Of a DNA stretch of 64,000 bases, positions 2,914 to 21,104 are shown piece after piece. The notes beneath the pieces are model-generated. The model saw only the letters and a program-made list of their open reading frames with translations, made no database searches and was not told the DNA's origin. This stretch comes from Escherichia phage vB_EcoM_PHB05. The DNA lies in sequence record NC_052652.1. One strand, written 5' to 3'. A program made the translations under genes and the position numbers. Each line of letters begins with the position of its first letter. The first letter of the stretch is position 1.

Positions 2914-3460
2914 TATTTCTCCTGTTATAACATTTTCTACACATTGTTTCGTAAATGTCTTCTCCTCCAATAACAATCTGTTCTTTAGAGTCGATAAGTC
3001 TAGCATTGAAAATAGCTTTTCTTCCACATTTACAAATGCTTTTCAATTCTGTAATTGAATCTGCTATGGCTAATAACCGTTCAGAACCTTCAAACAATTC
3101 TGTAGCAAAATCTGTTTTAAGTCCATAGCAGAATACAGGAATATCGTAATTATCTACCACATCTCCAAGAATGTCAACCATATCTTTAGTTAGGAATTGT
3201 GATTCATCCACAAATACTGCATCTACTGGATTTTCTTTAAGTTGTGTATAAATTTCCAGCATATCTTCTTTTGTTTTAACTGGTTTTGCTTCCTCTTTAA
3301 TACCTATCCTGGAAGCAATAGCACCACCAGATCTGGTATCTAAAGCTGAAGTTAAAAGAAGAACTTTCATATTTCTTTCTTTATAGTTCCAAGCTGTTTG
3401 TAGAAGATGTGTGCTTTTACCACTGTTCATCGGACTATATCGGAAATAAAGTTTAGCCAT
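2897..3460 (-). CDS. tdk: thymidine kinase
   Basis: P-loop MNSGKST, VFVDESQF, C-terminal Cys-rich zinc motif (CKCGRKA...CRKC); GAGGAGA RBS. Confidence 0.85.
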   Translation of the reverse strand: MAKLYFRYSPMNSGKSTHLLQTAWNYKERNMKVLLLTSALDTRSGGAIASRIGIKEEAKPVKTKEDMLEIYTQLKENPVDAVFVDESQFLTKDMVDILGDVVDNYDIPVFCYGLKTDFATELFEGSERLLAIADSITELKSICKCGRKAIFNARLIDSKEQIVIGGEDIYETMCRKCYNRRNNASSM

Positions 3461-3505
3461 ATTTTCTCCTCTAACGCTCCCATTTGTGGGAGCGATAATA
3501 CTTTA

Positions 3506-4081
3506 TTATTTCTCTTCGTCAAGAAGAATTTTTACTATTTGTTTTCTTCGCTTACTTACTGTACTTTCTGGTGAAATTCCGCGCTTCGTTAGCCAATTTT
3601 TATCCTTTTTAGACTGGCATAAAGCTATCGCTTCCTTCTCCGCTTTTGCTTCCCTGAATGTCATATCGTGCTTGTCAGCATAAGCTAGGATAGCGTTACA
3701 CTGCTTACAAACTACACGCAGGTCGTCTTCTGTTACATACAATAGGCGTAAAACAAAACTTGGGATATCTTCATAACAGGTTAATGTACCTGCTGCATTA
3801 ATATGGTCTACTTGAAAGTCTTTCATACCTCCTGTATGTCCACACAATTCACATTTACAATTCCAAACCTGTTTAGGTTTGCCTGTTTTCTTATCTAAAA
3901 CTACATTGCCATCTTTGTCCAACCTATCGGCTTTAAATCGTACAGATTGGATCTTTTTTATCTTATTCGGGTGTCTCACCCATGCTTTCCTTAAGCAGCC
4001 CCTTAAATATGTATAAAAGGCTGCTTGAGTTTTCCAAGGTGTTCCATCTCCCCAAATAACTTTAGGTTCTTTATTTTCCAA
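3506..4081 (-). CDS. HNH-family homing endonuclease
   Basis: CKCELCGH...DHINAAG...CKQCN HNH-like Cys/His motif; free-standing between tdk and replication genes. Confidence 0.55.
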   Translation of the reverse strand: MENKEPKVIWGDGTPWKTQAAFYTYLRGCLRKAWVRHPNKIKKIQSVRFKADRLDKDGNVVLDKKTGKPKQVWNCKCELCGHTGGMKDFQVDHINAAGTLTCYEDIPSFVLRLLYVTEDDLRVVCKQCNAILAYADKHDMTFREAKAEKEAIALCQSKKDKNWLTKRGISPESTVSKRRKQIVKILLDEEK

Positions 4082-4265
4082 TAGTGCTCACCTTTTTAGC
4101 TACATAATCTCCAGGTGGAATGTTATATTTAAAGAAAAGCATACGGTCTAAACCAGCCTTACACATGTTTTCTGGGATTGTGATTGTATATAGGAGTTTA
4201 TCTCCACGTTTATTGTATATTTTATATACTTCACCCTCTCCGTATTGTTTACCGTGAGAAGCCAT
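4071..4265 (-). CDS. hypothetical protein
   Basis: 64-aa ORF overlapping neighbours by a few nt. Confidence 0.3.
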   Translation of the reverse strand: MASHGKQYGEGEVYKIYNKRGDKLLYTITIPENMCKAGLDRMLFFKYNIPPGDYVAKKVSTIGK

Positions 4266-4650
4266 CTACACTCTCCTTCAATTGTTCAATAGCATCTGCT
4301 GCTTCAATATACTTACCTTTATACATTGCTTTTAAAGCCTTACGAACAAGATCATCGTCCGTGTATAAATCAATTAGCTGATTAGCTAACTCAATTTTTA
4401 CAGGATTTTTTAAGTTAGGGTAGGCTTCATACAACATATTGTAATATTTATCACTCAATTCTTTTTCAATATGAATAACGTGAATCGCTTTGTTTAGGTT
4501 GATCACACGATCACCTTTGTTTCGACAAGCATACTTAGCTAACTTAGTGAAACAAGGAGTTGCACCAATTAGATATGCAAGTTCCAAAGGTTGCATACGC
4601 ATACGTTTGTAGTGATCACCATCAATTTGAATATCCAGTGCTGTAGTCAT
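4249..4650 (-). CDS. hypothetical protein
   Basis: 133-aa ORF. Confidence 0.4.
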   Translation of the reverse strand: MTTALDIQIDGDHYKRMRMQPLELAYLIGATPCFTKLAKYACRNKGDRVINLNKAIHVIHIEKELSDKYYNMLYEAYPNLKNPVKIELANQLIDLYTDDDLVRKALKAMYKGKYIEAADAIEQLKESVDGFSR

Positions 4651-4665
4651 AAATCCTCCAAAAAT

Positions 4666-4687
4666 AAAGGGGCTTTCGCCCCTTTTT
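4666..4687. terminator. bidirectional intrinsic terminator hairpin
   Basis: AAAGGGGC-TTTC-GCCCCTTTT, A-run upstream and T-run downstream. Confidence 0.6.
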
Positions 4688-4688
4688 A

Positions 4689-5651
4689 TTAAATTCCAAT
4701 AACAGTGTTTACACGCTTCTCTTTGCTACGCAAATTAACACGTCCACGAGACAGGCTATTACATGATGTGCATCTTAGCACTTGGAATGTACTAACCGCT
4801 GTTGTGTAAACCTTACCAGGAACAACTTCAAGGTGCTCTTTACCGCAACGAGGACAACGAAGTTTTTCATCGTCATAGAATGCAGATACGTTAGGATGTT
4901 GTGGAATCCACGCACGAAGTTTGATGTAAAGATCTCTAAGAGAAACAACATCACCATCGTTGTATGTTTGCATACGGAAGAAGGCGTGTCTGTCTCCTTC
5001 ACAACATGCTTTCCACAAAGGAAAACCTTCATTATCAAGTTTAAAGTTTTCTGTATCAAAATACAAACACATTTCTTTAAGCGCATTAGAAGGTAGTGCA
5101 AACTGCTTCTTAGCTGCCTTGAGTGTATCAATTACAACATAGTGTGATGGTGGCTCCATACCGTGAAAAGCAAAACGTTGGTTAATATAAGCCTTATCAA
5201 ACTTAATACCGTTGTGCGCGATCACAATATCTGCATCGTCAAGCAAGTGCCACAGATCTTGACATAATTCCCAATCATCTGTATGATCTATGTCAAACAG
5301 AGGGTAATTGCTAAGGTTCTTACCTTCTACTTCTCCTGTTTCTAAATCAGCAGATGAATAGGAAAGCAAGTAACCTCGACGAATAACTTGTTCAGGTGCA
5401 ATAAAGGCTTTGAAACGTGAGAAGCTATACACAATCTCCGGTGCTGTCTCTACGTCAATAATTTTAATTACTGGCCCACCTTTATCTTGCGGAGCACCGC
5501 GATGTGGTGAATTTACACGAGCTAAGTAATCATTTACTGTGCTCTTCTTAGTAGAACTTCCCAACACCTCTTGTGCAATCTTACGCGAAGAATAACCTTG
5601 TGCTTTCATAGATACAATCAAGGCTTTCTGTTCGTCTGTTAATTTACTCAA
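4689..5651 (-). CDS. DnaQ-like 3'-5' exonuclease with N-terminal HTH and C-terminal zinc ribbon
   Basis: TTG start after AGGAGG; IIDVETAP, HNGIKFD, YNDGD exonuclease motifs; N-terminal GYSSRKIAQEV HTH-like; C-terminal CPRCG...CTSCN. Confidence 0.5.
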   Translation of the reverse strand: MSKLTDEQKALIVSMKAQGYSSRKIAQEVLGSSTKKSTVNDYLARVNSPHRGAPQDKGGPVIKIIDVETAPEIVYSFSRFKAFIAPEQVIRRGYLLSYSSADLETGEVEGKNLSNYPLFDIDHTDDWELCQDLWHLLDDADIVIAHNGIKFDKAYINQRFAFHGMEPPSHYVVIDTLKAAKKQFALPSNALKEMCLYFDTENFKLDNEGFPLWKACCEGDRHAFFRMQTYNDGDVVSLRDLYIKLRAWIPQHPNVSAFYDDEKLRCPRCGKEHLEVVPGKVYTTAVSTFQVLRCTSCNSLSRGRVNLRSKEKRVNTVIGI

Positions 5652-6682
5652 TGTTCCTCCTGCTCTGAAATATATGCTTGTAGCATACTTTCAAAAGTTG
5701 TTTCATCATTCGCCCAACGTTTCATATATACCAACTGAAAAATTGTCTCTATCCATTCGTCAGTTGTCATCTCTACTTCTTCACCATCCCAAGAAGTAAA
5801 TTTAACGCCATCTGGGAACCATTCATAATACTGATCTTTAACTGTCTGAAAAAGTTCAGCCTGTGTTTTACATTTGGAAATAAGATTAAAGCAAGTAATA
5901 TCTCCAAACTTAACATCGAAATCTTGGTAAGGTCGAATACTATCTGTCTTATCGCCCATTAACATTTGATAAGCTAACCAGTAACTACCCCAACCCTTAA
6001 TTTCTTTTTTCTTACCTTTTTCTACGATCCAGATATCACCGATAGATTCATCAATCAGAATAATGCAAGGATTTTTATAAACACCATCCTCTTTATAAAA
6101 GTTAAAGAGTAAACTTGGTGTGTGCAAGCTATCTTTGTCGATAGATGCTACAATATGAGAAAACTTACCAGTTTCCTTGTAGGCTTTATACCCTGCATAT
6201 CCATAGATTTCTAAAGCATCATCTGCCTCAATACCAGTAACAACGTCACCGTTATGTTTTTCAACTAGATAATCTTTAGTATCTGATAAATGGATTGGTC
6301 TTAAATCTGATCGTTCTGATTTATATTCTTTTGGCATTTTGAAAGAATGCCGGAAGGTTTTTCCTACCCCGATGACACCGCAATACTTTTGAAGTTTTAG
6401 GTGATCCATCATCTGGGTTATTTTTGTCTTTGCAGCTTGAAACGTAAAAGAAATATTATCTGGAACTATTTGAACGTCTTTTATTTCAAAATCTTCTCTA
6501 GAGAACAACTTCTTACCAGCAGCTTCGCGTTGCGCGTTAAGTGCTCCTAGCCATCCTCCAATATTTTTTGAAGATTTACCCCAAAAGTCTGTTCTTGTTT
6601 CAAACTCTTTTACATTACCGGAAGCCTTATGTACAGCGTGGATTTTTCTTTGTTCTAAAGCTGAAGATGCTTGGAACGCCAC
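5648..6682 (-). CDS. FEN-like 5'-3' exonuclease / flap endonuclease
   Basis: GIEADD, IVASIDKD and LMGDKTDSI motifs resemble T5 D15 / T4 RNase H family; start codon uncertain (GTG at 6682 or internal ATG). Confidence 0.5.
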   Translation of the reverse strand: MAFQASSALEQRKIHAVHKASGNVKEFETRTDFWGKSSKNIGGWLGALNAQREAAGKKLFSREDFEIKDVQIVPDNISFTFQAAKTKITQMMDHLKLQKYCGVIGVGKTFRHSFKMPKEYKSERSDLRPIHLSDTKDYLVEKHNGDVVTGIEADDALEIYGYAGYKAYKETGKFSHIVASIDKDSLHTPSLLFNFYKEDGVYKNPCIILIDESIGDIWIVEKGKKKEIKGWGSYWLAYQMLMGDKTDSIRPYQDFDVKFGDITCFNLISKCKTQAELFQTVKDQYYEWFPDGVKFTSWDGEEVEMTTDEWIETIFQLVYMKRWANDETTFESMLQAYISEQEEH

Positions 6683-6774
6683 TTGATCGTAGTCTATTGC
6701 AAGAATTGTGTTCTCGTCAACATATTTGTGCAGGTCTTCCGGTTGGATTAAAATGTAACCGCTAATATTACCTC

Positions 6775-6987
6775 CTATTCATCATCTGAACTCTCTGTTG
6801 AGAATGTTCGTGTGTAGGGACACTGACGACTTGCAGAAACCTCTATAACCTTGTCGTACATACCGTTAGAGTAAAAACAGTATTTTGTACTTCCAGAAAC
6901 TTGTTCTCCAGAATTAATTAAAGTTATTTGACCAGCATAAGAATAAGAACTGATTACTAAAAGTAAACCGACAAGAAGTTTTTTCAT
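6775..6987 (-). CDS. small secreted or membrane-anchored protein
   Basis: N-terminal signal-like MKKLLVGLLLVISSYSYA; AAGGAGA RBS. Confidence 0.4.
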   Translation of the reverse strand: MKKLLVGLLLVISSYSYAGQITLINSGEQVSGSTKYCFYSNGMYDKVIEVSASRQCPYTRTFSTESSDDE

Positions 6988-7004
6988 GGTGTGTCTCCTT
7001 AAAA

Positions 7005-7028
7005 GCCCACCTAACTAAGTAGGTAGGC
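7005..7028 (-). terminator. stem-loop with U-run on minus strand
   Basis: Inverted repeat GCCCACCTA/TAGGTAGGC; TTTT downstream on minus strand. Confidence 0.35.
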
Positions 7029-7061
7029 ATATTAACACATATTAAATTAGTAAGTCAAGTA

Positions 7062-7946
7062 TTATTTTTGAATAGTTGACTTGATAAGGTCTTGCATAAT
7101 ACCACGGATTTCGTTAAAGCACAGAAGGACAGATGCTTCAAAAGATCCTTCTTCATCATTAAAGTATTTAGGGAATTTAATACCACTCAACTTAAATTCT
7201 TTATCAACAATAAAGTTAACGAAACCGTCATATTCCAGGCCAATGGCAACAACGTGCTTACCATCTTCCATAAGTTCTACTGCACGAGATTCATAAAGGG
7301 ACTCTTTACTCCATACAACCACACCTTCCGAATCTTCAAGTTTAATATAATTACCCAGGGTCAGTCGTTCAGCCTCATGTTCTTCTAAGATGGTATCAAA
7401 ACCTTTAATAATGGCTTCTTCGTGTACACTAAACGGCAGAACTGGGAAAGTACCCAACACCTCACGAAGAAATACAGCAATATCTTCACTAATTTTCTTA
7501 GTACCATTAAGAACATAGGTAATACTGTTTTCAGTGTCTACAACAACATAGTTATAGAAATCATCTGCCTCTGTTTCTGGGAGCAGAGAAAACACAATAT
7601 CAGCCTCAATTGCTTTTTTGCTTTCTTTGTCCAAGAAGAACTCTTTAGTAGGATTTGCAGCAATAAACTCTTGTTCCATCTCCTGGAGTTTTTCATTAAG
7701 AATGCGTTTAACTTTCTTCTTATTAACTTTCTTAACAGACTGCCCTACTTTAATAACCTCTAAACCAGAGAACACTTTTACATAGGAACCATCATCTTCA
7801 AAACGAACAAGACCAATGGTATGTGCTTGTTGCCCCTGTGCCACAACAAAATCCAGCGGTTTGTCTGTTACTGTGTTCAGTGCTGAAATAGACAGACCAT
7901 CACCAGAAATCAGGGTTACGCAAGATTTGAAATTTTTAGCAAACAT
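7062..7946 (-). CDS. RdgC-like recombination-associated protein
   Basis: ATG at 7946 preceded by GAGGAGA; LLPETEADDFYNYVVVDTENSITYV and FPVLPFS resemble RdgC segments. Confidence 0.45.
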   Translation of the reverse strand: MFAKNFKSCVTLISGDGLSISALNTVTDKPLDFVVAQGQQAHTIGLVRFEDDGSYVKVFSGLEVIKVGQSVKKVNKKKVKRILNEKLQEMEQEFIAANPTKEFFLDKESKKAIEADIVFSLLPETEADDFYNYVVVDTENSITYVLNGTKKISEDIAVFLREVLGTFPVLPFSVHEEAIIKGFDTILEEHEAERLTLGNYIKLEDSEGVVVWSKESLYESRAVELMEDGKHVVAIGLEYDGFVNFIVDKEFKLSGIKFPKYFNDEEGSFEASVLLCFNEIRGIMQDLIKSTIQK

Positions 7947-7956
7947 AGTTTTCTCC

Positions 7957-8235
7957 TCAAATAACAACTACAAAATATTTTACACCATCATATTCGACAA
8001 TATGATCAGGATATTTAAATCCTTTATAAGATTTACCAAACAGACTAACAGCTTCATTAGCTTTGTTTTGCGGATTACTCAACCACTGTTCTTCTGTGTA
8101 AAACTTAAATTCTGTTCTCTTACCTTCTTTTTCTAAACCAACAATTTCCTGTGTGATATCTTCAATACCTGCATTCTTCAAGGATTTGATCACCTGACGC
8201 AAACCGTGTTTAAAGATATCTTCTGCTGTTAACAT
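7957..8235 (-). CDS. hypothetical protein
   Basis: 92-aa ORF with GGAGG RBS. Confidence 0.4.
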   Translation of the reverse strand: MLTAEDIFKHGLRQVIKSLKNAGIEDITQEIVGLEKEGKRTEFKFYTEEQWLSNPQNKANEAVSLFGKSYKGFKYPDHIVEYDGVKYFVVVI

Positions 8236-8271: not shown

Positions 8272-8994
8272 TTAAGCAATGATTGCTGCGATATTAGGTT
8301 TAACAAAGGTAGATGGCTTCATAATTTTACCTTTGTCATCAAAGAATACGTATACCTTTTGAACTTCGTTATATACAGCATGTACTCCAGTATAAGAACC
8401 TTCTGCACGATCTTTGCTTCGCATCTCGATAGCATCACACTCTTTTTCAAGAGCTTCAACAATATCCTTAGTTTCCCAAATAGCCAGGAGTTGCTTCTTG
8501 GTAGGATACTTGGACTCATTGCTATTCAACACTTCACGCATAACCTTCTTCTCGTTATAAACAGAACGCACCAAAGTATCTCGTGCCATACGTGTAAGTG
8601 TAAGAGACATTAGGGCAAATTGCAAGTCATTTTCTACCATTTTATCAAATTCAATGATAACATCGTAAATGTTTTCTGCCAGAACATCTCCTGTCGGCAT
8701 TTCCAGAGCTTTATCAACACCTTCTTTACCAAAGAACATAAACGCCAAGTAGGATGCTACCACAAAAATATCTGCTGCTGCATCAAGTAATTCAACGTGA
8801 TCATTTTCCTGCGCTGCTGCTTGGAACTCTTTTAGTTCTTCTCGTACAAAAGAAAGTTGAGCTTCAAACATCTCTTGAGTAAATTCTGGAGTCACTCCAC
8901 CACGTGCCTTAGCATTCCAAGCAACAATTTGATCGGCAGCTTTGATAAAGAAGCTATTGTCCACTTTTACTTGTTTGAAAAAATTCTCGATCAT
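8272..8994 (-). CDS. MazG-like nucleotide pyrophosphohydrolase domain protein
   Basis: ELKEFQAA...ELLDAAADIFVV pattern typical of MazG/HisE-like all-alpha NTP pyrophosphatases; AAGGAGA RBS. Confidence 0.35.
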   Translation of the reverse strand: MIENFFKQVKVDNSFFIKAADQIVAWNAKARGGVTPEFTQEMFEAQLSFVREELKEFQAAAQENDHVELLDAAADIFVVASYLAFMFFGKEGVDKALEMPTGDVLAENIYDVIIEFDKMVENDLQFALMSLTLTRMARDTLVRSVYNEKKVMREVLNSNESKYPTKKQLLAIWETKDIVEALEKECDAIEMRSKDRAEGSYTGVHAVYNEVQKVYVFFDDKGKIMKPSTFVKPNIAAIIA

Positions 8995-9003
8995 TGTTTC
9001 TCC

Positions 9004-9183
9004 TTATTTAAAATATTGTTCTAACAAAACACTAATGCGAACTACCGATTCGCCCATATACGCCCCAGCACAGAGGAAAACAACAAATCTACAAAAATTG
9101 CAGTACCATTTGTTCACTGGAAACGAGGCTAACATTATAATTGCAATAGCAATTAACATCATAAGAAATGTTACTAATACCAT
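9004..9183 (-). CDS. small hydrophobic membrane protein
   Basis: 59-aa ORF MVLVTFLMMLIAIAIIMLASF... below the ORF-track cutoff; AAGAGG RBS. Confidence 0.3.
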   Translation of the reverse strand: MVLVTFLMMLIAIAIIMLASFPVNKWYCNFCRFVVFLCAGAYMGESVVRISVLLEQYFK

Positions 9184-9192
9184 ATTTACCTC

Positions 9193-10308
9193 TTACTCTG
9201 CTGGTTCCCAAGTACCTGGAATCATCTTACGTACACGTACACCTGTTGGTTTAGTAGGTATTCCACCATCGGAAAACTCTTCATACTCAATCTCAACAAA
9301 TTTACCAATTAACATTTCGGCATTTTCTGCTTTACGATAGTTAATGGTTTCATCTGAATCCTTACGCATCAGGAATTCGACTACTTTACCATTTTCCATC
9401 TCGCCTGTCAATACCCCGTCACCATTTTTATCACGTTTTGCACTTACCACCTTAACTTCAAGCGTCTGCCGTGGTTTACGTTTAATAACATCATAAGAAC
9501 GTTTATCAAACTCGTAAACACCTTGTGCATTACGATAAACAACACCTTCAGCTTTCTCACGCAGAGCTTTTGCATAGAACGCATCAAACTGCTCTTGGTT
9601 TTCAATGTACTCTGTATGCACTACACAAATAAGTTCATCTAAACCTTTATCTTCAACAACTTCTTTTAGAGCAGCCAAAACTTCAACCCTCTTCTCAAAT
9701 GGTACAGATGGTACAGGAACATCATATACATAGTATTTAAGAAGCGGAGTGTTAGCATTATGCTTTTTCCACGCACTATTAATTTGTTGAAGGCTAAGGA
9801 CACCCAAACCAGCAAAAACTTCACCGTCAAGAGGATGACCAACTACTTCTTTAATGAAGGTTGGAATTTCTTTCCAGTGAGGTGGAAGTTTATATACTTC
9901 CCCAGCTTTAGATAAGCATTCACCTTGCATGTTAATCATTGAACGTAGACCATTCAATTTATACTGTGCATAACCTGGGAACAAAACACGATCAGCATAA
10001 TCTTTATAATCCTGACATTTCATGGGCGTGGAAGGAACATGGTTTTCAGCTTCCTCTTTTGTTTTATAGTACCCATTCTTAAGTTGTTTTGTCCATTTGG
10101 CAAGAGCTTCTATTTCAGCTTGTTCTTCTGCTGTTGTTTCATTTGAGCGACCAATATTTTTAGGTTCTGCCGTATAAGATTTGCTAGTAATCTTTCCACC
10201 TAATTGACCATGAGCAACAGTTACAACACTACCTTCGGTATAGACTGACCACTGTTTAATTTTACCTGTAGAAGTTTTACCATATAGTGTAGGATTAGTT
10301 TGTTTCAT
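9193..10308 (-). CDS. ATP-dependent DNA ligase
   Basis: Nucleotidyltransferase motif YKLNGLR (KxNG); internal ATG at 10308 preceded by GGAGG. Confidence 0.55.
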   Translation of the reverse strand: MKQTNPTLYGKTSTGKIKQWSVYTEGSVVTVAHGQLGGKITSKSYTAEPKNIGRSNETTAEEQAEIEALAKWTKQLKNGYYKTKEEAENHVPSTPMKCQDYKDYADRVLFPGYAQYKLNGLRSMINMQGECLSKAGEVYKLPPHWKEIPTFIKEVVGHPLDGEVFAGLGVLSLQQINSAWKKHNANTPLLKYYVYDVPVPSVPFEKRVEVLAALKEVVEDKGLDELICVVHTEYIENQEQFDAFYAKALREKAEGVVYRNAQGVYEFDKRSYDVIKRKPRQTLEVKVVSAKRDKNGDGVLTGEMENGKVVEFLMRKDSDETINYRKAENAEMLIGKFVEIEYEEFSDGGIPTKPTGVRVRKMIPGTWEPAE

Positions 10309-10498
10309 CTTTAACCTCCAGTTGCGAAAGAACCCATTTAGCCATTTCAATTTCACCGTGTAGTCTGCCTAGTTCATAGGCATCATCAATATTACCACCA
10401 GTGTAATCATCCACCATAAAGTAAGGATCTTCACTACTGTTAGGTGCGTTTGCAATTCTCGTTAGTTCTTCAATAAATGTCATAGTTACCCTTACCAA
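10295..10498 (-). CDS. hypothetical protein
   Basis: 67-aa ORF. Confidence 0.3.
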   Translation of the reverse strand: MVRVTMTFIEELTRIANAPNSSEDPYFMVDDYTGGNIDDAYELGRLHGEIEMAKWVLSQLEVKDETN

Positions 10499-10716
10499 TT
10501 ATACACAAGAGTTTGAATCTCTTCCATCAAGTCTTCAAGATCTGTATCAACGTATTCAGAAGATGTTGCCATAAAGTATGTAATCATTGTGAACCCTTCC
10601 GAAGAAAGGGCATCAAGGATATCATTAAACATATCTTCCATTTCAGTATTCTCACCAAATGAGAATAACATTTGTTGATCTTCGCTTACACCTTTAACAT
10701 AGATAGCTGTACTCAT
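10492..10716 (-). CDS. hypothetical acidic protein
   Basis: 74-aa ORF. Confidence 0.3.
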   Translation of the reverse strand: MSTAIYVKGVSEDQQMLFSFGENTEMEDMFNDILDALSSEGFTMITYFMATSSEYVDTDLEDLMEEIQTLVYNW

Positions 10717-10719
10717 ATA

Positions 10720-11040
10720 TTAATCCTTAAGACGTTCATTTAAATCTGCAATAACATCACCTAAATCTTCACATTCCAGTGTTAACTCTGAAACTTGTCC
10801 ACTCAAATAACAAACTTCTTCATTTAAATCTGAAATAATGTTTTCTAATGAATCTACTTGGTCATCATACGAACGTTTTGTTTCTTCAAGTTCTTCCGTA
10901 AGATCATTAATCAAACGGAGCAAAGATAAGATATAGCCGTCTCCTGTCTCGTTCCTCCACTCACTTCCGTAGCGATAAATAATAATTTCACCATTATCGA
11001 CTACTGTAAAATACTTACCTTCACCAGAATAAATTTCCAT
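10720..11040 (-). CDS. hypothetical protein
   Basis: 106-aa ORF. Confidence 0.35.
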   Translation of the reverse strand: MEIYSGEGKYFTVVDNGEIIIYRYGSEWRNETGDGYILSLLRLINDLTEELEETKRSYDDQVDSLENIISDLNEEVCYLSGQVSELTLECEDLGDVIADLNERLKD

Positions 11041-11049
11041 ACACTCTCC

Positions 11050-11454
11050 TTATTGTAGCTTAAGTGAACTGCGAAGACGTTTCTCTTGCTGATCACGAAT
11101 ATGTTGTGGAACCTCATGAATTGAGTCGTTACCGTGCCTATTTTCAACAACTAAGGAGATAACTTGATAACCAAACTCTTCAGCAAGAGTTAAATAAGGT
11201 TTAAGTTCTTTCTCTGTGGTTGAAGTGTTAGAGACAATAATCTTTTTAATATTAGATGCCATAGCATCACGAACAATACTCTGACACCATGCGTGTGCTT
11301 TACCTACATTCTCTGGCTTCCAATCGTAAACACCACTTTCTGTGTAATGATATTGATCTGCCTCACAGATAGGCCAATAACCTTCAGAAATAATTTCTGC
11401 TACTGTAGATTTACCTGCACCTGAAACACCACGTAAAATGATAAGTTGTTTCAT
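11050..11454 (-). CDS. P-loop kinase, polynucleotide kinase-like
   Basis: Walker A GVSGAGKST at N-terminus; start abuts stop of upstream ligase-like gene. Confidence 0.5.
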   Translation of the reverse strand: MKQLIILRGVSGAGKSTVAEIISEGYWPICEADQYHYTESGVYDWKPENVGKAHAWCQSIVRDAMASNIKKIIVSNTSTTEKELKPYLTLAEEFGYQVISLVVENRHGNDSIHEVPQHIRDQQEKRLRSSLKLQ

Positions 11455-12387
11455 TTAGCCTCCAAAGAAGTTTTCTATTTCTTTACGTCGCTCTTGTGGA
11501 TCTAAAGCAGCCCATTGAGTCTTAGTAAAGTTGTTTCGAAGCCATTCTAGCAAAGTATAATATTCTTCGTCAACAATTTGTTTAGCATTTTTTGGGTTGT
11601 CCCAAATCATATCCCACTTCTTATTGCCACCACGCATAAGGAATTTCTTAGCAAGATAATATGGTGACTTAATCTTTAACAGCAAGTTAAACGGATAGTT
11701 TGTTTCCCGAACAACAAACCCTTCGTGCTTACAATGTTTAGACATTTCAACAACATCTGAAAATTTAATCATCGGATAAACTTCAGGACGTTTAAATTTT
11801 GTAATAGATGCAATCCCATCAAGCACACCTTCGGGTAGCATGAAACTTGTCCCATCAAGATTTTGAATTCTTGCTCCAATTAAGTATGCGCCTGGTTCTT
11901 CTTCGACAATATGTGGATCAGAAGGATCACAGATTTCAAAAAGGAAAGTTGCTTTTGCACTTTCTGTCCACTTAATGAAATATTCTATGTCATCACACTC
12001 GGAAACAATATGGTTCTTGGCAAGAGTTGCAAAATCTGACTCTAGGCTCCCTGTTGTTGATACAATAAGTTGCCCTTTGTACACACCTACAGATGCCATA
12101 AAACCGTTTACTTTACGGACAGCATCTACAAGCTGGTCTGCTGGAAGATCTGTACCATTCTCAAAACGATTAAAGATTTTAGTAAAAGGCCAGATAACAA
12201 CATTGTCTTCTGAGTCAACAACCAACCCACGACAATCTAGGAGTCGTTTGTCAACGTTCCACAAGTTATCCCAGAATACATTGTTTTTGTATTTAAGTAC
12301 AGCAAGACCAGCATACTCTCCAGATTTAACTTCTTTTTTATGCACTAAACCTTTTGCAATCAGGTCATCACAATTGAACTTAGCCAC
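11455..12387 (-). CDS. RNA ligase-like nucleotidyltransferase
   Basis: Motifs RKVNG (I), EGFVV (IV), LLKIKSP (V); GTG start after AAGGAGA. Confidence 0.5.
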   Translation of the reverse strand: MAKFNCDDLIAKGLVHKKEVKSGEYAGLAVLKYKNNVFWDNLWNVDKRLLDCRGLVVDSEDNVVIWPFTKIFNRFENGTDLPADQLVDAVRKVNGFMASVGVYKGQLIVSTTGSLESDFATLAKNHIVSECDDIEYFIKWTESAKATFLFEICDPSDPHIVEEEPGAYLIGARIQNLDGTSFMLPEGVLDGIASITKFKRPEVYPMIKFSDVVEMSKHCKHEGFVVRETNYPFNLLLKIKSPYYLAKKFLMRGGNKKWDMIWDNPKNAKQIVDEEYYTLLEWLRNNFTKTQWAALDPQERRKEIENFFGG

Positions 12388-12388
12388 C

Positions 12389-12940
12389 TTAATCTCCTTT
12401 GATTATCTTATGATGGTCTACAACAACAATATCACGCTTATCCATAATAGAGATGATTTCGTCAAAATGCAAGATTTTTCCGTGTGCATCCCAACCAACA
12501 TCCAACATTTTCCCATACAAATGATCAGGGAATGATCCGTGAGAGTGCCCGTGTAGCATGATTGATCCATGCCCTTGTTTATTCCAAGCAGCCATAGGGT
12601 AATGACTTAAGACGAAGAACAGTTTCTGATATTTCACTTCGTCATAATACACCACCTCGCCATATTCTGCAAGCACTTCTCGGTGTTTGCTGTAATCATG
12701 GTTCCCAACACAGTAAGTGATATCACCTTGAAGACGTGAAGCAATTTTACGGGTATCTTCTTCAGTCCCGAAACAGAAGTCGCCCAAATGCCACATCTTG
12801 ACACCAGGACTCGTAGCACATTTATTCCATGCTTCAATCAGTGCTTCTGTCATATGCTCCATATCTTCCCACGGGCGATATTCAGGAGCAAACTCTCGAA
12901 TACGTTTGTGCATAAAATGCAAATCACTTGTAATAAACAT
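12389..12940 (-). CDS. calcineurin-like metallophosphoesterase
   Basis: SDLHF, GDFCFG, GNHD, GHSH metal-binding motifs. Confidence 0.65.
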   Translation of the reverse strand: MFITSDLHFMHKRIREFAPEYRPWEDMEHMTEALIEAWNKCATSPGVKMWHLGDFCFGTEEDTRKIASRLQGDITYCVGNHDYSKHREVLAEYGEVVYYDEVKYQKLFFVLSHYPMAAWNKQGHGSIMLHGHSHGSFPDHLYGKMLDVGWDAHGKILHFDEIISIMDKRDIVVVDHHKIIKGD

Positions 12941-13344
12941 TAGTATAATCCCTCGCTGAATAGTTCACTGTCGTGACCATTTCTTTCATAGTTAATTTGT
13001 TTGGCGTTATCTGCAATGATATAAGCATCTTTGCGACTCCACCAATTATAATATTGATCAATAAACCCTTGATTATCAGGTAAGCAAAACAGTTTATCGA
13101 TCAATCCTGCATCTTTTAAAACATTAAGTTGTGCAGATAGTACAGGATTTGCATGCCTAACACAAGGAATAATTAACTCTTCGCCATTGTTGAGAATATA
13201 CTTATTCGCAGCGCAGACTATAACACGTTGAGCATAGTGATCCTCACCAATCCAAGTAAGAGGTTGGTAACAAATATCATGTTGATTAGTAGCGCACATC
13301 AATTTTCTACATACTCTTCGTCTGTATGTATATCGTAAAAGCAA
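12940..13344 (-). CDS. hypothetical protein, translationally coupled to phosphoesterase
   Basis: Stop overlaps downstream start (TAATG). Confidence 0.35.
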   Translation of the reverse strand: MLLRYTYRRRVCRKLMCATNQHDICYQPLTWIGEDHYAQRVIVCAANKYILNNGEELIIPCVRHANPVLSAQLNVLKDAGLIDKLFCLPDNQGFIDQYYNWWSRKDAYIIADNAKQINYERNGHDSELFSEGLY

Positions 13345-13454
13345 TCTTCAAAAGTTGCAAGTGCTTTTTCTACATCGGGCCAATGGTTAGTGTGTTTGTA
13401 TATATAAAACCCATCCCCTTCATCTACCCAAATAACATAAAGCATAACACCTCC

Positions 13455-13829
13455 TTAATAGTTAACACGTTTAATTTCAACACCATAGGATGAAATAAAA
13501 TTTTCCTTGGCTAACATATATTTACCAGCAGCAGAAGGATTTGATGTATGAACATAGATAGTTTTAAGAGCATCCCATTCACCCGCGTACAACATACATT
13601 CTACGTCTAAGAACGCATGATATCCTTCTTGATCTTCTCCAAGATCATTATCGAAGTGTATCTCTGAGATATTATTGAAATTATCTTCATCTGAAACAAA
13701 AGATAACCAATCCTCAAAAGATTTTAACCAAATGGCATCCTCATAACCATAATCTTTAGGATCTCTTAAATCGTCTAACCAAAGAATTTTAGCCACTATC
13801 AACCCCCTTCCTGTTTCTCTTCTTTCCAA
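13455..13829 (-). CDS. hypothetical protein
   Basis: 124-aa ORF. Confidence 0.35.
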   Translation of the reverse strand: MERRETGRGLIVAKILWLDDLRDPKDYGYEDAIWLKSFEDWLSFVSDEDNFNNISEIHFDNDLGEDQEGYHAFLDVECMLYAGEWDALKTIYVHTSNPSAAGKYMLAKENFISSYGVEIKRVNY

Positions 13830-13990
13830 GTTTTACCATTATCTACCAACTTCTTAGAAACAGCAAATCTTTCTCCATTGATATAAAACAAATAAAGAAT
13901 AAAGGATTTTCCTATAGTTACAGTATCTACTACTTTTACACGCTTCACACCTTGCATGTATTTGGCTTTACCTGAATAAATAAGGAACAT
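13799..13990 (-). CDS. hypothetical protein
   Basis: 63-aa ORF. Confidence 0.25.
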   Translation of the reverse strand: MFLIYSGKAKYMQGVKRVKVVDTVTIGKSFILYLFYINGERFAVSKKLVDNGKTWKEEKQEGG

Positions 13991-14268
13991 TACTTATTCC
14001 TTTTGTTGTTGATCACATCTAAAGCTGTGTAAGGTTTGTTTGTACCGCTGTATTCAAGAATAATTGGTACATATTCATAGACCAACTCAAAAGTACCATA
14101 CATAGAATCTGCAACTGAAATAAGCATTTCAGTGCCTTTGTCGTTCTTAATTAATGAAAATCTTGCCCCTGGTTTATTGAGCACTTCATATTTCTTACCT
14201 GCTGTCAGCAAACCTGAATACCATTCATTTTGCACAACAGACAAACACTTCAGATAAGTTTTTCTCAT
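13990..14268 (-). CDS. hypothetical protein
   Basis: 92-aa ORF. Confidence 0.3.
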   Translation of the reverse strand: MRKTYLKCLSVVQNEWYSGLLTAGKKYEVLNKPGARFSLIKNDKGTEMLISVADSMYGTFELVYEYVPIILEYSGTNKPYTALDVINNKRNK

Positions 14269-15831: not shown

Positions 15832-16725
15832 ATGAAAGTTAGTATTCTGCATGGTGTTGACTGTTATGTTACTGATGTAGACGTTAAAGTGTTTACATTC
15901 TCTGGTGGAGAACAACATGTTCAATTAGATACGAATCTATCAGGTTTCAATCATGCTACAGACAGAATCTTACTCACTTTAGAAGTAAGATCTGCTAAAG
16001 ACTTGATGACTTTGGTTATGACTAAGAATGCATTGGACAATATGCTATATCATAAACCATATTGTGTTGATTTACTCATGTTGTATGTGCCGTATGCACG
16101 ACAAGACAGAGTGTGTGAGCCTGGGGAAGCATTCGGAGTTAAAGCATTTGCTTCTATAATTAATTCATTAAATTTCTCACGTGTTATCGTTGCTGATCCG
16201 CATAGTGATGTTACTCCAGCAGTGTTTGACAGACTCTGTGTAATACCTCAAGAAGAGATTGCTTACGAAACTTTAAAGTGGAAGTTACGTATGGAGAATT
16301 TTGCTCTTGTTAGCCCTGATGGTGGTGCTCTTAAGAAAATATTTAAATTATCTAAGAAAATGTCTTTAGATGTGTTCTGTGCAGAGAAGGTTAGAGATAC
16401 CGCAACAGGTGCTATTGTTCGTACAGACATTTCTGTACAGGATTTCAATAAGCGTAACCTGATGATCGTAGATGATATCTGTGATGGTGGTAGAACTTTT
16501 ATTGAATTGGCTAAAGTGCTACGTGCTCGTAACGCAGGTAAGATTGAGCTATATGTTACGCACGGTATCTTTTCTAAAGGTCTTAAAGAGTTAAGTGAGC
16601 ACTTTGACTGCATTCATTCTCTTAATGTGTGGGAAGATAACATCCAAGAAGATTCTGGTGTTCTTGTTAAGAATCAGTCAGATTTGCAACAACAAATTGT
16701 ATCTCCATACGTGTGGAATTTTTAA
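15832..16725 (+). CDS. prs: ribose-phosphate pyrophosphokinase (PRPP synthetase)
   Basis: LMLYVPYARQDR and PRPP-binding MIVDDICDGGRTF motifs; AAGGAGA RBS. Confidence 0.7.
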   Translation: MKVSILHGVDCYVTDVDVKVFTFSGGEQHVQLDTNLSGFNHATDRILLTLEVRSAKDLMTLVMTKNALDNMLYHKPYCVDLLMLYVPYARQDRVCEPGEAFGVKAFASIINSLNFSRVIVADPHSDVTPAVFDRLCVIPQEEIAYETLKWKLRMENFALVSPDGGALKKIFKLSKKMSLDVFCAEKVRDTATGAIVRTDISVQDFNKRNLMIVDDICDGGRTFIELAKVLRARNAGKIELYVTHGIFSKGLKELSEHFDCIHSLNVWEDNIQEDSGVLVKNQSDLQQQIVSPYVWNF

Positions 16726-19276: not shown

Positions 19277-19349
19277 GGTTCCATAGCTCACTGACGAGAG
19301 CGCACACCTCATAAGTGTCGAGGGCAGGGATTGTAACCCTGGGGAACCA
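19277..19349 (+). tRNA. tRNA-like, anticodon CAU (Met/Ile2-type), atypical D and T loops
   Basis: Hand-folded cloverleaf; anticodon loop CTCATAA; T-loop ATTGTAA and D-loop without GG; CCA follows. Confidence 0.35.
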
Positions 19350-19383
19350 CCATTTAAAAGGAGGTGCTATGCATCTCCTATAT

Positions 19384-19469
19384 GCAAGTGTGGTGGAATT
19401 GGTGATACACATTGTGCTTAAAACGCAACGCTTAAATGATTGAGGGTTCGAATCCCTCCACTTGCACCA
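19384..19469 (+). tRNA. tRNA-Leu (anticodon UAA), type II, CCA encoded
   Basis: Acceptor GCAAGTG/CACTTGC, T-arm GAGGGTTCGAATCCCTC, anticodon loop CTTAAAA. Confidence 0.65.
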
Positions 19470-19471
19470 AC

Positions 19472-19577
19472 GCCTAGTAGGGTATTTGGTAATTCCGAGG
19501 CCATCAAAGCCTGAAAAATATGTTAGACCGCTTTGTCTAACTAAATACGAAATATGGTTCGATTCCATAACTAGGCT
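19472..19577 (+). tRNA. 106-nt tRNA-like element, anticodon loop CATCAAA (UCA), 6-bp D-stem with 4-nt loop, 39-nt extra arm
   Basis: Perfect acceptor GCCTAGT/ACTAGGC and canonical T-arm TATGGTTCGATTCCATA; internal 7-bp hairpin GTTAGAC/GTCTAAC. Confidence 0.35.
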
Positions 19578-19610
19578 TCAATTTAAATAATAATTTTTAG
19601 TAAAAATATC

Positions 19611-19639
19611 TTGACATTCACTTAGTTTTTTGTTATAGT
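19611..19639 (+). promoter_or_regulatory. promoter TTGACA-N17-TATAGT inside tRNA cluster
   Basis: Strong hexamers immediately upstream of the tRNA at 19651. Confidence 0.5.
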
Positions 19640-19650
19640 TGCTTTGAAAA

Positions 19651-19729
19651 CGGGGTGTATCTCACCTGACTTCTAATCAGGCGTTAACCGAGTAATTGGA
19701 GTATGCAGGTTCGAATCCTGTCACCCCGA
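19651..19729 (+). tRNA. tRNA-Arg-like (anticodon UCU) without a conventional D-arm
   Basis: Perfect acceptor CGGGGTG/CACCCCG, anticodon arm CCTGA-CTTCTAA-TCAGG, T-arm GCAGGTTCGAATCCTGT, CCA encoded; only 5 nt where D-arm should be. Confidence 0.4.
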
Positions 19730-19751
19730 CCAAAAAGTTTTTAAAAACTAC

Positions 19752-19781
19752 TTGACAAGCAAGATAGTTTTATGTTAGATT
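19752..19781 (+). promoter_or_regulatory. promoter candidate TTGACA-N18-TAGATT
   Basis: Consensus -35, moderate -10. Confidence 0.35.
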
Positions 19782-19796
19782 TAAAGTATGATAACG

Positions 19797-19883
19797 GGAA
19801 GGTAGGGCGCAGCGGTGCGCAACCAGGTTTGAACCCTGGCCCATTGTAGCGATACGGTGATGGTTCGACTCCATTATCTTCCT
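19797..19883 (+). tRNA. tRNA-Ser (anticodon UGA), type II
   Basis: Acceptor GGAAGGT/ATCTTCC, anticodon loop TTTGAAC, long variable arm, T-arm GATGGTTCGACTCCATT, CCA encoded. Confidence 0.65.
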
Positions 19884-19904
19884 CCAAATTCAACTAGGAG
19901 CTTT

Positions 19905-20057
19905 ATGAATTATAAAACTATTGGACAGGTTGTTACAGGAGTTAAGATTGTAGATAATAAGGTTGTTTATGAGTATTCTAATCTTCAACAATCTGAAGAT
20001 GGTAAGAATATTCGTATGGTAAAAGCAGAACAAAAAGACTCCGGTTGTTTTGAATAA
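19905..20057 (+). CDS. small hypothetical protein embedded in tRNA cluster
   Basis: 50-aa ORF MNYKTIGQVV... after AGGAG RBS. Confidence 0.35.
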   Translation: MNYKTIGQVVTGVKIVDNKVVYEYSNLQQSEDGKNIRMVKAEQKDSGCFE

Positions 20058-20065
20058 TTAAGAAC

Positions 20066-20148
20066 GGTAGATTGGTGAAATGGTAGCCACAACAGTTTGC
20101 TAAACTGTCGTCGGAAACGGCGTGTAGGTTCAAGTCCTACATCTACCG
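20066..20148 (+). tRNA. tRNA-Ser (anticodon GCU), type II
   Basis: Acceptor GGTAGAT/ATCTACC, anticodon loop TTGCTAA, T-arm GTAGGTTCAAGTCCTAC, CCA encoded. Confidence 0.65.
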
Positions 20149-20277
20149 CCAAGTTATCTTTAATGTAGCTTGTAATCTTACTTTAATAGAGTAAATCTTC
20201 GGCAAGTGGCGGTAACCACTTTACCGATATCCCATAGTCAAGTGCCGCAAACACTGGCTATTTTAAAGATAATTTAT

Positions 20278-20350
20278 ACATCGTTAGCTCAGTTGGTAGA
20301 GCAAGGGGCTTTTAACTCCAAGGTCGAAGGTTCGAATCCTTCACGATGTA
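20278..20350 (+). tRNA. tRNA-Lys (anticodon UUU)
   Basis: D-arm GCTCAGTTGGTAGAGC, anticodon loop CTTTTAA, T-arm GAAGGTTCGAATCCTTC, CCA encoded. Confidence 0.65.
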
Positions 20351-20358
20351 CCAAACAC

Positions 20359-20442
20359 GTAGGTATCGCATAGCGGCAATTGCTGGAGACTGTAAATCTC
20401 CTGCCCTTCGGGGCTTCGTTGGTTCGAGTCCAACTACCTGCA
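20359..20442 (+). tRNA. tRNA-Tyr (anticodon GUA), type II
   Basis: Anticodon arm GGAGA-CTGTAAA-TCTCC, T-arm GTTGGTTCGAGTCCAAC, CCA encoded. Confidence 0.65.
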
Positions 20443-20452
20443 CCAAATTAAA

Positions 20453-20534
20453 GATGGATTGGCCTAGTGGTTGGGCGACGGACTGTTAATCCGTGAACGA
20501 AAGTTCTAGCAAGGTTCAAATCCTTGATCCATCG
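20453..20534 (+). tRNA. tRNA-Asn (anticodon GUU) with unusually long variable arm
   Basis: Perfect acceptor GATGGAT/ATCCATC, anticodon arm ACGGA-CTGTTAA-TCCGT, 15-nt variable region with GAAC-GAAA-GTTC hairpin, T-arm CAAGGTTCAAATCCTTG. Confidence 0.5.
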
Positions 20535-20544
20535 CCAGAATTAT

Positions 20545-20621
20545 GGACTTGTAGAGTTAAGGTAAACCCCCAGTCGCCAAGAGGCTTCTGGAATTGCAGG
20601 TATCGAATCCTGCCGAGTCCA
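20545..20621 (+). tRNA. tRNA-like element with T-arm and acceptor pairing but no clear anticodon arm (possible pseudo-tRNA)
   Basis: Acceptor GGACTTG/CGAGTCC, T-arm GCAGGTATCGAATCCTGC with 8-nt loop; no CCA. Confidence 0.25.
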
Positions 20622-20627
20622 AGTATT

Positions 20628-20698
20628 GCTCCTATCGTATAACGGCTATTACGGTTGCCTTGTAAGCAACTTATCAGGGTTCGAGTCCTTGTGGGAGC
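20628..20698 (+). tRNA. tRNA-Thr (anticodon UGU)
   Basis: Anticodon arm GTTGC-CTTGTAA-GCAAC, T-arm CAGGGTTCGAGTCCTTG, CCA encoded. Confidence 0.65.
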
Positions 20699-20719
20699 AC
20701 CAATTTTAACTCTAAAGGA

Positions 20720-21049
20720 GTGTATGTGACAGAAAAAGAGTTAGAGAAATATTTTAATATCAATGTTTTCGATGGTTTTGATGATATTGAAGATGTTGAA
20801 AGATATTATGAAGTAGAGTTAGATAAGGATAACATTGTAATTCTTTCTGCCACTTATGATTGTGCATATTATGAAGGTGAATCTCACGTTTATTTTTATG
20901 ATATGAAAACATCTTTGTTTTATGAAGTACACGCATATCATTGTTCTTGTTATGGCTTAGAAGGTCAGTGGGAACCTGAAGAAATAGGTGATTTGGATTT
21001 TACTATTGCATATCTAAACAGACGTGGTGCATCTACTATTTTAAAATAA
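20720..21049 (+). CDS. hypothetical protein
   Basis: 109-aa ORF with GTG start after AAAGGAG. Confidence 0.45.
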   Translation: MYVTEKELEKYFNINVFDGFDDIEDVERYYEVELDKDNIVILSATYDCAYYEGESHVYFYDMKTSLFYEVHAYHCSCYGLEGQWEPEEIGDLDFTIAYLNRRGASTILK

Positions 21050-21063
21050 ATATCAAAAGCCTC

Positions 21064-21093: not shown

Positions 21094-21104
21094 AATATTG
21101 TTAA

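Follow-up and report, generated by a model that had tools for sequence, protein, structure and literature searches.

A kinase, an RNA ligase and a metallophosphoesterase encoded by separate adjacent genes in Escherichia phage vB_EcoM_PHB05: a candidate split pathway for RNA end-healing and sealing

Cleavage of tRNA is a common anti-phage strategy, employed by PrrC, RloC, PARIS, retron effectors, Schlafen nucleases, Cas13a and Cas12a3, and the known answers of the phages, besides the polynucleotide kinase-phosphatase (Pnkp, or PseT) and RNA ligase 1 (Rnl1, also called RnlA or gp63) with which T4 counters PrrC, are mostly replacement tRNAs. The two T4 genes, pseT and rnlA, lie apart in the genome of that phage. 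Bacteria have the repair systems Pnkp/Hen1 and Pnkp1-Rnl-Hen1 (Clostridium thermocellum, Capnocytophaga gingivalis), fungi and plants have the protein Trl1 (LIG-KIN-CPD), and there are fused proteins in certain phages (FNU2 gp90; PHROG 8238). Here we consider a locus in a 64,000-nucleotide stretch of DNA of Escherichia phage vB_EcoM_PHB05 (NC_052652.1; the whole of this stretch is called the window below), in which a P-loop kinase, an RNA ligase and a metallophosphoesterase (MPE) are encoded by three adjacent genes. This gene set is real, widespread and ordinary for its phage group, and it is known from earlier computational predictions: in 2022 Iyer, Burroughs, Anantharaman and Aravind gave an in silico description of the neighbourhood for Escherichia phage V5 and Proteus phage Mydo (PMC9503650, section 3.7.3), tRNA repair was proposed in 2025 for the homologous kinase and ligase of Pakpunavirus, whose kinase has no 3'-phosphatase domain (PMC12846349), and several GenBank records are already named "RNA ligase/RNA repair" or "polynucleotide kinase". 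Judged from sequence, the set differs from the experimentally known systems of T4 and bacterial Pnkp both in its split architecture and in the family of its phosphatase.

The three genes, and the fourth that adjoins them, are the following (aa, amino acids; ORF, open reading frame):

11050-11454, minus strand: candidate stand-alone P-loop polynucleotide 5'-kinase (mini-Pnk) with no phosphatase domain; 134 aa, GVSGAGKST at residues 9-17
11455-12387, minus strand: predicted ATP-dependent RNA ligase of the Rnl1/Trl1 clade; 310 aa, GTG start with AAAGGAG 5' of it, short helical C-terminal region
12389-12940, minus strand: binuclear MPE of the aq_1665 family; 183 aa, motifs SDLHF, GDFCFG, GNHD and GHSH
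12940-13299, minus strand: homolog of T4 Arn.3; 119 aa, within a longer ORF at 12940-13344

That four minus-strand ORFs are packed together between 11050 and 13344 was the starting point of the original prediction, which was made from the sequence of the window, and their coordinates, motifs and stop/start junctions were all borne out. The junctions, read directly from the sequence, are TAATG (Arn.3-like gene/MPE), TAA-G-GTG (MPE/ligase) and TAAATG (ligase/kinase). To judge by the hundreds to thousands of homologs that each of the four possesses, and by the invariance of the quoted motif residues in the family alignments, these are real genes and not chance ORFs. We consider it probable that the kinase, the ligase and the MPE constitute a split RNA end-healing and sealing pathway, one that would serve early in infection to re-join tRNAs, whether of the host or of the phage, that have been cut by anticodon nucleases. 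Support comes from the family of the ligase, the Pnk-like affinity of the kinase, the intact active site of the MPE and the conserved linkage of the three genes. The catalytic activities that we infer, with RNA (tRNA) as the substrate, would proceed as follows. The MPE, perhaps aided by a protein of the cREC family encoded two genes upstream (see below), would act as the 3'-healer, opening and removing the cyclic or 3' phosphate to leave a 3'-OH; the 134-aa kinase would move a phosphate from a nucleoside triphosphate to the 5'-OH, with Asp33 as the general base; and the Rnl1-type ligase would accept adenosine monophosphate (AMP) on Lys92, pass the AMP to the 5'-phosphate and seal the break. 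The function of such a pathway would be anti-defence, and it would share with T4 the presumed logic of healing first and sealing afterwards. The Arn.3-like gene would have no part in it.

With respect to the ligase, both its sequence and its predicted fold place it in the Rnl1/Trl1 clade, with T4 Rnl1 as the nearest relative by either measure. Like the T4 enzyme it belongs to the family PF09511 (RNA_lig_T4_1), which it matches over positions 2-227 of the 227 in the profile (52.9 bits, with a cut-off of 28.3; E 5.7e-14), and its match to phrog_562 is at 1.2e-68. All of the nucleotidyltransferase motifs I, III, IV and V are present, and KVNG (K92-G95), EGFVV (E222/G223) and LLKIK (K238/K240) are readily seen among them. 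A single-sequence search of the PDB with this protein produced no match; a family profile built from 26 homologs found T4 Rnl1 (2c5u) at 6.6e-10, across the nucleotidyltransferase domain. The residues K92, G95, R53, K70, F72, E151, E222, G223, K238 and K240 are invariant in the 26 homologs and align, in that order, with K99, G102, R54, K75, F77, E159, E227, G228, K240 and K242 of T4, so that the catalytic residues are shared as well as the family. In Foldseek searches with the AlphaFold2 (AF2) model of the ligase (pLDDT 92), T4 Rnl1 was matched at 1.2e-13 to 9e-13 and the ligase domain of fungal Trl1 about as well (approximately 1e-12), with Rnl3 (about 1e-9), Rnl2 (about 1e-6) and also Rnl5 behind them; the DNA ligases, at 1e-4 or worse, fall some nine orders of magnitude below T4 Rnl1. 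The public label of a homologous ligase, that of Ralstonia phage RSP15 (4932-5867 in the fetched locus L002), is "metallophosphoesterase".

The kinase has its best matches among the RNA-repair polynucleotide kinases and not among the nucleotide kinases, but the E-values are modest and the assignment therefore leans on gene context as well. The protein matches Pfam AAA_33 at 6.9e-10, phrog_2071 at 9e-58 and phrog_505, "polynucleotide kinase", at 5.8e-9; an NCBIfam scan gave only P-loop noise for it and no match for the other proteins. When a family profile, made from ten homologs of different phage lineages, was compared with the PDB, the best match was Pnkp1 from the Capnocytophaga RNA repair complex (4xrp, 2.7e-6), followed by the tRNA kinase PSTK (8e-6), by T4 Pnk (1ly1, 1.6e-5), which aligns end to end (positions 2-133 with 1-146), and by the C. 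thermocellum kinase CthPnk (4gp7, 1.8e-4), likewise end to end (4-135 with 10-143). Adenylate, uridine and nicotinamide-riboside kinases, on the other hand, came in at 1e-3 or worse and match little past the N-terminal P-loop region. Both the P-loop, G9-x4-G14-K15-S/T16, and D33 are invariant in the family, and in the HMMER alignment D33 coincides with D35 of T4 Pnk, so that the two P-loop kinases have the same catalytic Asp. Unlike the T4 enzyme, this one stands alone: its 134 aa end with the kinase fold, there is no fused C-terminal HAD (DxDxT) 3'-phosphatase domain, and the phosphatase role would be given to the separate MPE.

As for the MPE, its active site appears complete: none of the residues of the six motifs (D6/H8, G53/D54, G79/N80/H81, H113, G131/H132 and H134) varies among 11 diverse homologs. 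The match to Metallophos_2 (22.7 bits, 1.1e-4) is under the cut-off of 27, and that to phrog_547 is at 4.6e-55. A profile of the family found a sole match in the PDB, the Aquifex protein aq_1665 (1xm7), at 1.2e-20; the Pnkp phosphatase and lambda phosphatase did not match this profile at E values up to 1. By these comparisons the MPE belongs to the aq_1665 family and is not of the lambda-phosphatase type found in bacterial Pnkp. The family is a large one, with more than 7,600 homologs in a profile search of a large protein collection, and the 120 of them that were listed all stand alone, at about 165-216 aa, under uninformative names. In the GenBank copy of the genome of Escherichia phage vB_vPM_PD06 (PD06), the MPE (MH816848.1, 104287-104838) is labelled "MutT/nudix".

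The three proteins are also linked by the arrangement of their genes in other phages. Loci from 14 phages were fetched and their ORFs were searched by phmmer, and the genes for MPE, ligase and kinase were within 7 kb of one another in every one of the 11 Gram-negative phage lineages sampled. These lineages are Justusliebigvirus (Stephanstirmvirinae), Vequintavirus, Mydovirus, Pakpunavirus, Otagovirus, Saclayvirus, Pogseptimavirus, Thalassavirus, Ralstonia phage RSP15, Aeromonas phage PhAER-3 and Vibrio phage PS17B-2, and they include two genera of Demerecviridae and one Ackermannviridae phage. The order, the spacing and even the strand of the trio vary among them, and a linkage that is kept in spite of this argues for selection on the linkage itself. 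Here, in Vibrio phage PS17B-2 and in Aeromonas phage PhAER-3, the MPE directly adjoins the ligase. Moreover, of four metagenomic contigs to which diverse MPE homologs led, two have the ligase too, and one of these has all three genes (hhalign E-values: ligase 1e-40, kinase 7e-38). The ligase and kinase also go together in number when phage records are counted by tblastn for each host genus (ligase/kinase): Escherichia 197/196, Pseudomonas 177/173, Klebsiella 36/36, Acinetobacter 24/24, Aeromonas 13/13 and Cronobacter 7/7. The chief excess of ligase over kinase comes from 124 Streptomyces phages, and Limpid, the one such phage examined, has beside its ligase a partner gene whose annotation is polynucleotide kinase. 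Finally, a 738-aa protein of a Fusobacterium phage, FNU2_90, has AAA_33, Metallophos and RNA_lig_T4_1 domains in a single polypeptide encoded beside a tRNA cluster, and the kinase and the ligase of the window are homologs of the corresponding parts of it (hhalign 2.6e-7 and 7.6e-14).

The same three classes of activity, as predicted here, occur in bacterial Pnkp, with Pnkp1 as the top solved match of the kinase profile and CthPnk aligned along its whole length. The original prediction had read the locus as the RNA repair set of Pnkp-type enzymes divided among separate genes. The Rnl1-type ligase, the Pnk-like kinase, the linkage in all of the sampled lineages and the FNU2 fusion speak for this, but the MPE does not fit, being of neither the Pnkp nor the lambda-phosphatase type. 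In contrast to the bacterial systems, the window has three genes with their own stops and starts, an MPE of the aq_1665 family and a ligase of the Rnl1 type, and when most of the larger ORFs on the minus strand between 834 and 15461 were scanned against Pfam, neither Hen1 nor any methyltransferase family appeared. We also considered a direct relationship of the MPE to the Pnkp-type domain and rejected it: hhalign against the MPE-containing FNU2_90 gave a probability of 0.2%, and the Metallophos domain (PF00149) of that fused protein has no detectable profile similarity to the MPE of the window. For the MPE part, "split Pnkp" is thus an analogy and not a homology.

It is here that the model has its weakest link. 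As an enzyme that heals 2',3'-cyclic-phosphate or 3'-phosphate ends, the MPE would have the least secure role of the three, because its family is common in phages where no such ligase or kinase is found nearby or in the same genera, and because it lacks Pnkp-type similarity. A different arrangement, which we regard as rather unlikely, would have the kinase and the ligase alone as the repair pair, and the MPE would do some other job (on cyclic-nucleotide or ADP-ribose-derived immune signals, or on other phosphoesters) and be simply a frequent neighbour in an early counter-defence region; the 3' ends would then be healed by cREC, by an HD-domain protein or by host enzymes. The distribution of the MPE speaks for such an arrangement. 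By tblastn the family is present in 1387 phage records, about twice as many as the ligase (749) or the kinase (621), and the MPE records with no match to this ligase family comprise some 300 extra in Vibrio, 120 in Staphylococcus, 56 in Listeria, 50 in Bacillus and 44 in Enterococcus. An MPE with no such ligase nearby is found in Staphylococcus Kayvirus, at a distance of 3.5 kb from Prs-like and NAMPT-like genes, and both Vibrio phage D430 and a T5-like contig from fresh water have the MPE by itself. The Pakpunavirus paper, too, lists only the kinase and ligases as repair enzymes (PMC12846349), and proteins with an HD_4 domain often stand beside the MPE. Nevertheless, in every ligase-bearing lineage that was sampled the MPE lies within 7 kb of the ligase. 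A ligase of this kind requires a 3'-OH and, since the 134-aa kinase lacks a phosphatase domain, another enzyme must heal the 3' ends; that an MPE is able to fill this slot is evident from the fusions of kinase, MPE and ligase in FNU2_90 and in bacterial Pnkp (PMC3675462).

Several other points weigh against a tRNA repair pathway that includes the MPE. The sole solved relative of the MPE is an uncharacterised Aquifex protein. The residues of T4 Rnl1 that are specific to it and essential are reportedly, from mutagenesis in the Shuman laboratory, R54, K75, F77 and K119, and the position of the last of these is occupied in the window's ligase by Thr/Ser, within the sequence STTG. There are only about 65 residues after motif V of this ligase, a region that is conserved and predicted to be all-helical. 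The C-terminal domain that confers tRNA specificity on T4 Rnl1 has about 120 residues, and with so short a region in its place such a specificity should not be assumed for the phage enzyme. In T4 Pnk the other essential residues are R38 and R126. The position of R38 is a His or variable in the phage kinases, and the nearly invariant Arg of their NRHGN motif aligns four residues before R126, in a gapped loop, so that the equivalent of R126 is uncertain. A search of the literature revealed no biochemical or genetic study of any member of the three families, and these genes do not figure in a HIDEN-SEQ preprint that deals with a V5-like phage.

HD-domain proteins, one of the possible alternative 3'-healers mentioned above, are encoded beside or near the MPE in Pakpunavirus, in Otagovirus, in Ralstonia phage RSP15 and in one metagenomic contig (4493-5053 in the fetched locus L005, 5735-6205 in L010, 3942-4388 in L002 and 3656-4258 in L022). 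The RSP15 protein (weakly, 2.7e-4) and that of the metagenomic contig match Pfam HD_4; the remaining two are called HD proteins only in their annotation, and the HD-annotated protein of PAK_P1 has no Pfam match. Such a protein could be either an alternative phosphohydrolase partner or an alarmone hydrolase. There is no HD protein among the scanned ORFs of the window.

Beyond these four genes, the window has the following:

13299-13445, minus strand: 48-aa ORF, annotated as a coding sequence in PD06 and PaulScherrer
13455-13796, minus strand: cREC protein (cyclic-phosphate-processing receiver-like); 113 aa, GTG start, PF20274
9193-10308, minus strand: ATP-dependent DNA ligase, about 0.75 kb beyond the kinase
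8272-8994, minus strand: MazG-superfamily (PRA-PH) pyrophosphohydrolase; PF01503 at 3.2e-7, a peripheral member of the published V5-type neighbourhood
19277-22158, plus strand: 16 tRNA genes, found by ARAGORN

The cREC gene, two genes upstream, had been overlooked in the original prediction and is a more relevant neighbour than the Arn.3-like gene. The protein matches PF20274 at 3e-14 (53.9 bits, with a cut-off of 27), and its invariant motifs WLDDLRDP, HxDNDLGE and VHTSNPSAAxK mirror the Asp/Asp/Thr/Lys set of receiver domains. It was the Aravind group that defined this family, linked to RNA ligases and predicted to process cyclic phosphates (PMC7824862; the role was predicted in PMC9503650 also), and homologs of the gene adjoin the ligase in the Vequintavirus phage "nom" and in Mydovirus. 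We regard the cREC protein as a candidate for an extra enzyme that would process either 3' ends or ADP-ribose cyclic phosphate. T4 differs from the present locus here too, in that the window has a cREC gene and keeps its three candidate repair genes adjacent.

The tRNA cluster has fewer members than previously claimed: a count of about 21 tRNA genes had been given, and ARAGORN finds 16 in the window. They include Lys-UUU, Tyr-GUA, Asn, Thr and Gln tRNAs and four with a CAU anticodon, and several of these isoacceptors are targets of known anticodon nucleases, so that the phage might both replace and repair tRNAs. The possession of tRNA genes is another likeness to T4. There are tRNA clusters close to the trio in several other phages as well as in this one, and the tRNAs of the present cluster are possible substrates or replacements.

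In its content this locus resembles the neighbourhood of V5 and Mydo, with a T4-like ligase, a cREC protein, a small kinase, a MazG-type protein and a calcineurin-like phosphoesterase all encoded within 8272-13796, and all five of these genes are homologous to genes of Vequintavirus and Mydovirus. The MazG-type gene, named as a component of the published neighbourhood (PMC9503650), is homologous to nom_76 (1e-15) and to a Mydovirus "nucleotide pyrophosphohydrolase". There are also differences. In the V5-like phages the MPE and the kinase are divergent from the ligase, whereas in the window the MPE gene is followed directly, and in the same direction, by those for the ligase and the kinase, and here an Arn.3-like gene and the 48-aa ORF stand between cREC and the MPE. 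The V5-like and Mydovirus loci have a Sir2 gene beside the ligase, and no such gene was found in the window when all of its ORFs of at least 40 aa were searched by phmmer with the Sir2 proteins of "nom" and Mydovirus, at E up to 0.01.

The absence of Sir2 is relevant to a second alternative, in which RNA repair would follow a fungal- or plant-like route coupled to nicotinamide adenine dinucleotide (NAD+). In this scheme cREC or the MPE would open the cyclic phosphate to a 2'-phosphate, the Trl1-like ligase would seal a junction that bears the 2'-phosphate, and this phosphate would then be removed by an NAD+-dependent transferase, Sir2 in the V5-like phages or the KptA of the host in the present case. 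The ADP-ribose cyclic phosphate formed as a by-product would be cleared away by the MPE, cREC and MazG. Such a model has been published for the V5 and Mydo phages (PMC9503650), and there is some reason for it: the Sir2 genes adjoin the ligase in Vequintavirus and Mydovirus, and the modelled fold of the window's ligase matches that of Trl1-LIG about as well as that of T4 Rnl1. A P-loop polynucleotide kinase is a partner of the ligase in both cases. Trl1, however, uses a 2H cyclic phosphodiesterase, and requires a 2'-phosphate and Tpt1; no 2H or Tpt1 gene was seen among the ORFs scanned here, in a scan that was not exhaustive for the window.

The same alternative has a further attraction in the genes that lie divergently from the repair array, a Prs-like gene at 15832-16725 on the plus strand followed by a NAMPT-like gene (about 16.8-18.5 kb). 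A homologous pair beside the kinase and ligase in Pakpunavirus has been read as NAD+ reconstitution pathway 1 (Adps and Namat) (PMC12846349). In 6 of the 11 lineages the ligase has a Prs-like gene no more than 7 kb away, and in at least five of these there is, by annotation, a NAMPT-like gene too (the locus fetched for Acibel004 stops inside the Prs-like gene). If the NAD+-coupled route were true, it would explain why repair genes stand beside genes for NAD+ reconstitution and would couple two counter-defence functions. However, searches with proteins from related phage loci detected no homologs of Sir2, Macro, Rnl2, KptA/Tpt1 or HD in the 64-kb window, and most of the lineages that bear the trio have no Sir2 near the ligase. 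The linkage to the Prs-like/NAMPT-like pair may be functional or may reflect only a shared counter-defence region, and common placement in an anti-defence region would be enough to explain it. We think an NAD+-coupled route very unlikely for this phage. That Sir2, which V5-like relatives add to the set and which is central to the published model, is missing from the window is nonetheless awkward for the split pathway of kinase, ligase and MPE that we favour.

A third alternative concerns DNA rather than RNA. The kinase and the MPE might heal 5'-OH and 3'-phosphate ends of DNA for the benefit of the nearby DNA ligase, and the "RNA ligase" would then either act on DNA or have a structural role, like that of T4 gp63 in tail-fibre attachment. 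A distinct DNA ligase about 1 kb away had been noted previously, and it is indeed there, at the distance of 0.75 kb given above; in 7 of the 11 lineages such a gene is found a few kb away. T4 Pnkp acts on DNA ends too, and many records repeat the name of T4 gp63, "tail fiber attachment catalyst". This label has been inherited from the annotation of T4, and nothing in the window backs it. Moreover, in fold as in sequence the ligase is far nearer to the ligases of RNA and tRNA than to those of DNA; across genera, the kinase goes with the RNA ligase and not with the DNA ligase; and FNU2_90 joins its kinase and MPE to an RNA-ligase domain. Taken with these observations, DNA-end repair or a structural role seems to us extremely improbable.

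The ligase-kinase pair is present in some 620-750 sequenced phages of Escherichia, Klebsiella, Pseudomonas, Vibrio, Acinetobacter and Aeromonas, among them candidates for therapy. If these genes, together with the MPE, do constitute a split RNA repair pathway, RNA repair would be a common counter-defence, a function would be assigned to the large aq_1665 family of metallophosphoesterases, and there would be compact new RNA end-modifying enzymes. A further value of the set is that it is easy to test against the many tRNA-cleaving defences that are now known.

The four genes at 11050-13344 had also been taken to form an operon, but their close packing is not peculiar to them. They are embedded in a co-directional array of about 20 tightly packed genes that runs from about 15461 to 9193, and on the minus strand of this array there is no terminator-like site, scans for promoters and terminators having remained at the background level. 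The four are not an isolated operon. The window has a GC content of about 37%; as far as about 15.5 kb its genes lie on the minus strand, and beyond that point on the plus strand.

The Arn.3-like gene had been put forward as an unknown protein of 134 aa and as a possible additional component of the repair system. The long ORF at 12940-13344 does exist, but the start of the gene is almost certainly the ATG at 13299, which overlaps the TGA of the upstream 48-aa ORF (TGATG), and the protein is therefore one of 119 aa, as it is annotated in PaulScherrer and PD06. It is 44-47% identical to Arn.3 of T-even phages, and the family is found in 1582 phage records. Among the sampled loci it stands beside the kinase-ligase-MPE trio only in this phage subfamily; elsewhere it occurs in unrelated early-gene contexts, such as between arn.4 and arn.2, near motA and asiA, in IME08, and near topoisomerase genes in Kuttervirus. 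On present evidence, which is that of sequence and gene context, it would seem to be neither a repair component nor a conserved partner of the trio. A profile search found 1133 representative clusters, mostly of small stand-alone proteins, and among the features of the family are Cys, Arg and His residues that do not vary and the sequence LFSEGLY at the C terminus. The model of the protein is confident (pLDDT 85), and no neighbour was found for it in the PDB. Several records call it an "anti-restriction nuclease", a name that seems to have been copied from the neighbouring T4 arn. The adjoining 48-aa ORF has no Pfam or PHROG match. In PaulScherrer (BASEL phage Bas60, MZ501100) the corresponding genes run from bas60_0242 to bas60_0247, with 0245 and 0246 as the Arn.3-like gene and the 48-aa ORF.

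Directly downstream of the kinase, at 10720-11040 on the minus strand, is a gene for a predicted coiled-coil protein of 106 aa, assigned to phrog_18076 ("hol-like chemotaxis") and kept in close relatives. Further downstream of the repair region, from 834 to 8000 on the same strand, there is a block of genes for nucleotide metabolism and recombination, which includes ThyX-like, thymidine kinase, NT5C-like nucleotidase, HNH, exonuclease/RNase H-like and RdgC-like genes. Over the full length of 10500-14000, a megablast search gave 129 related records; PD06, which is classed in Justusliebigvirus of the Stephanstirmvirinae (phi92-like myoviruses), is 99.8% identical there. Three GenBank entries under the name "Campylobacter phage" (MG065645, MG065639 and MG065656) are about 96% identical to this group of E. 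coli phages, which suggests that their hosts have been mis-assigned.

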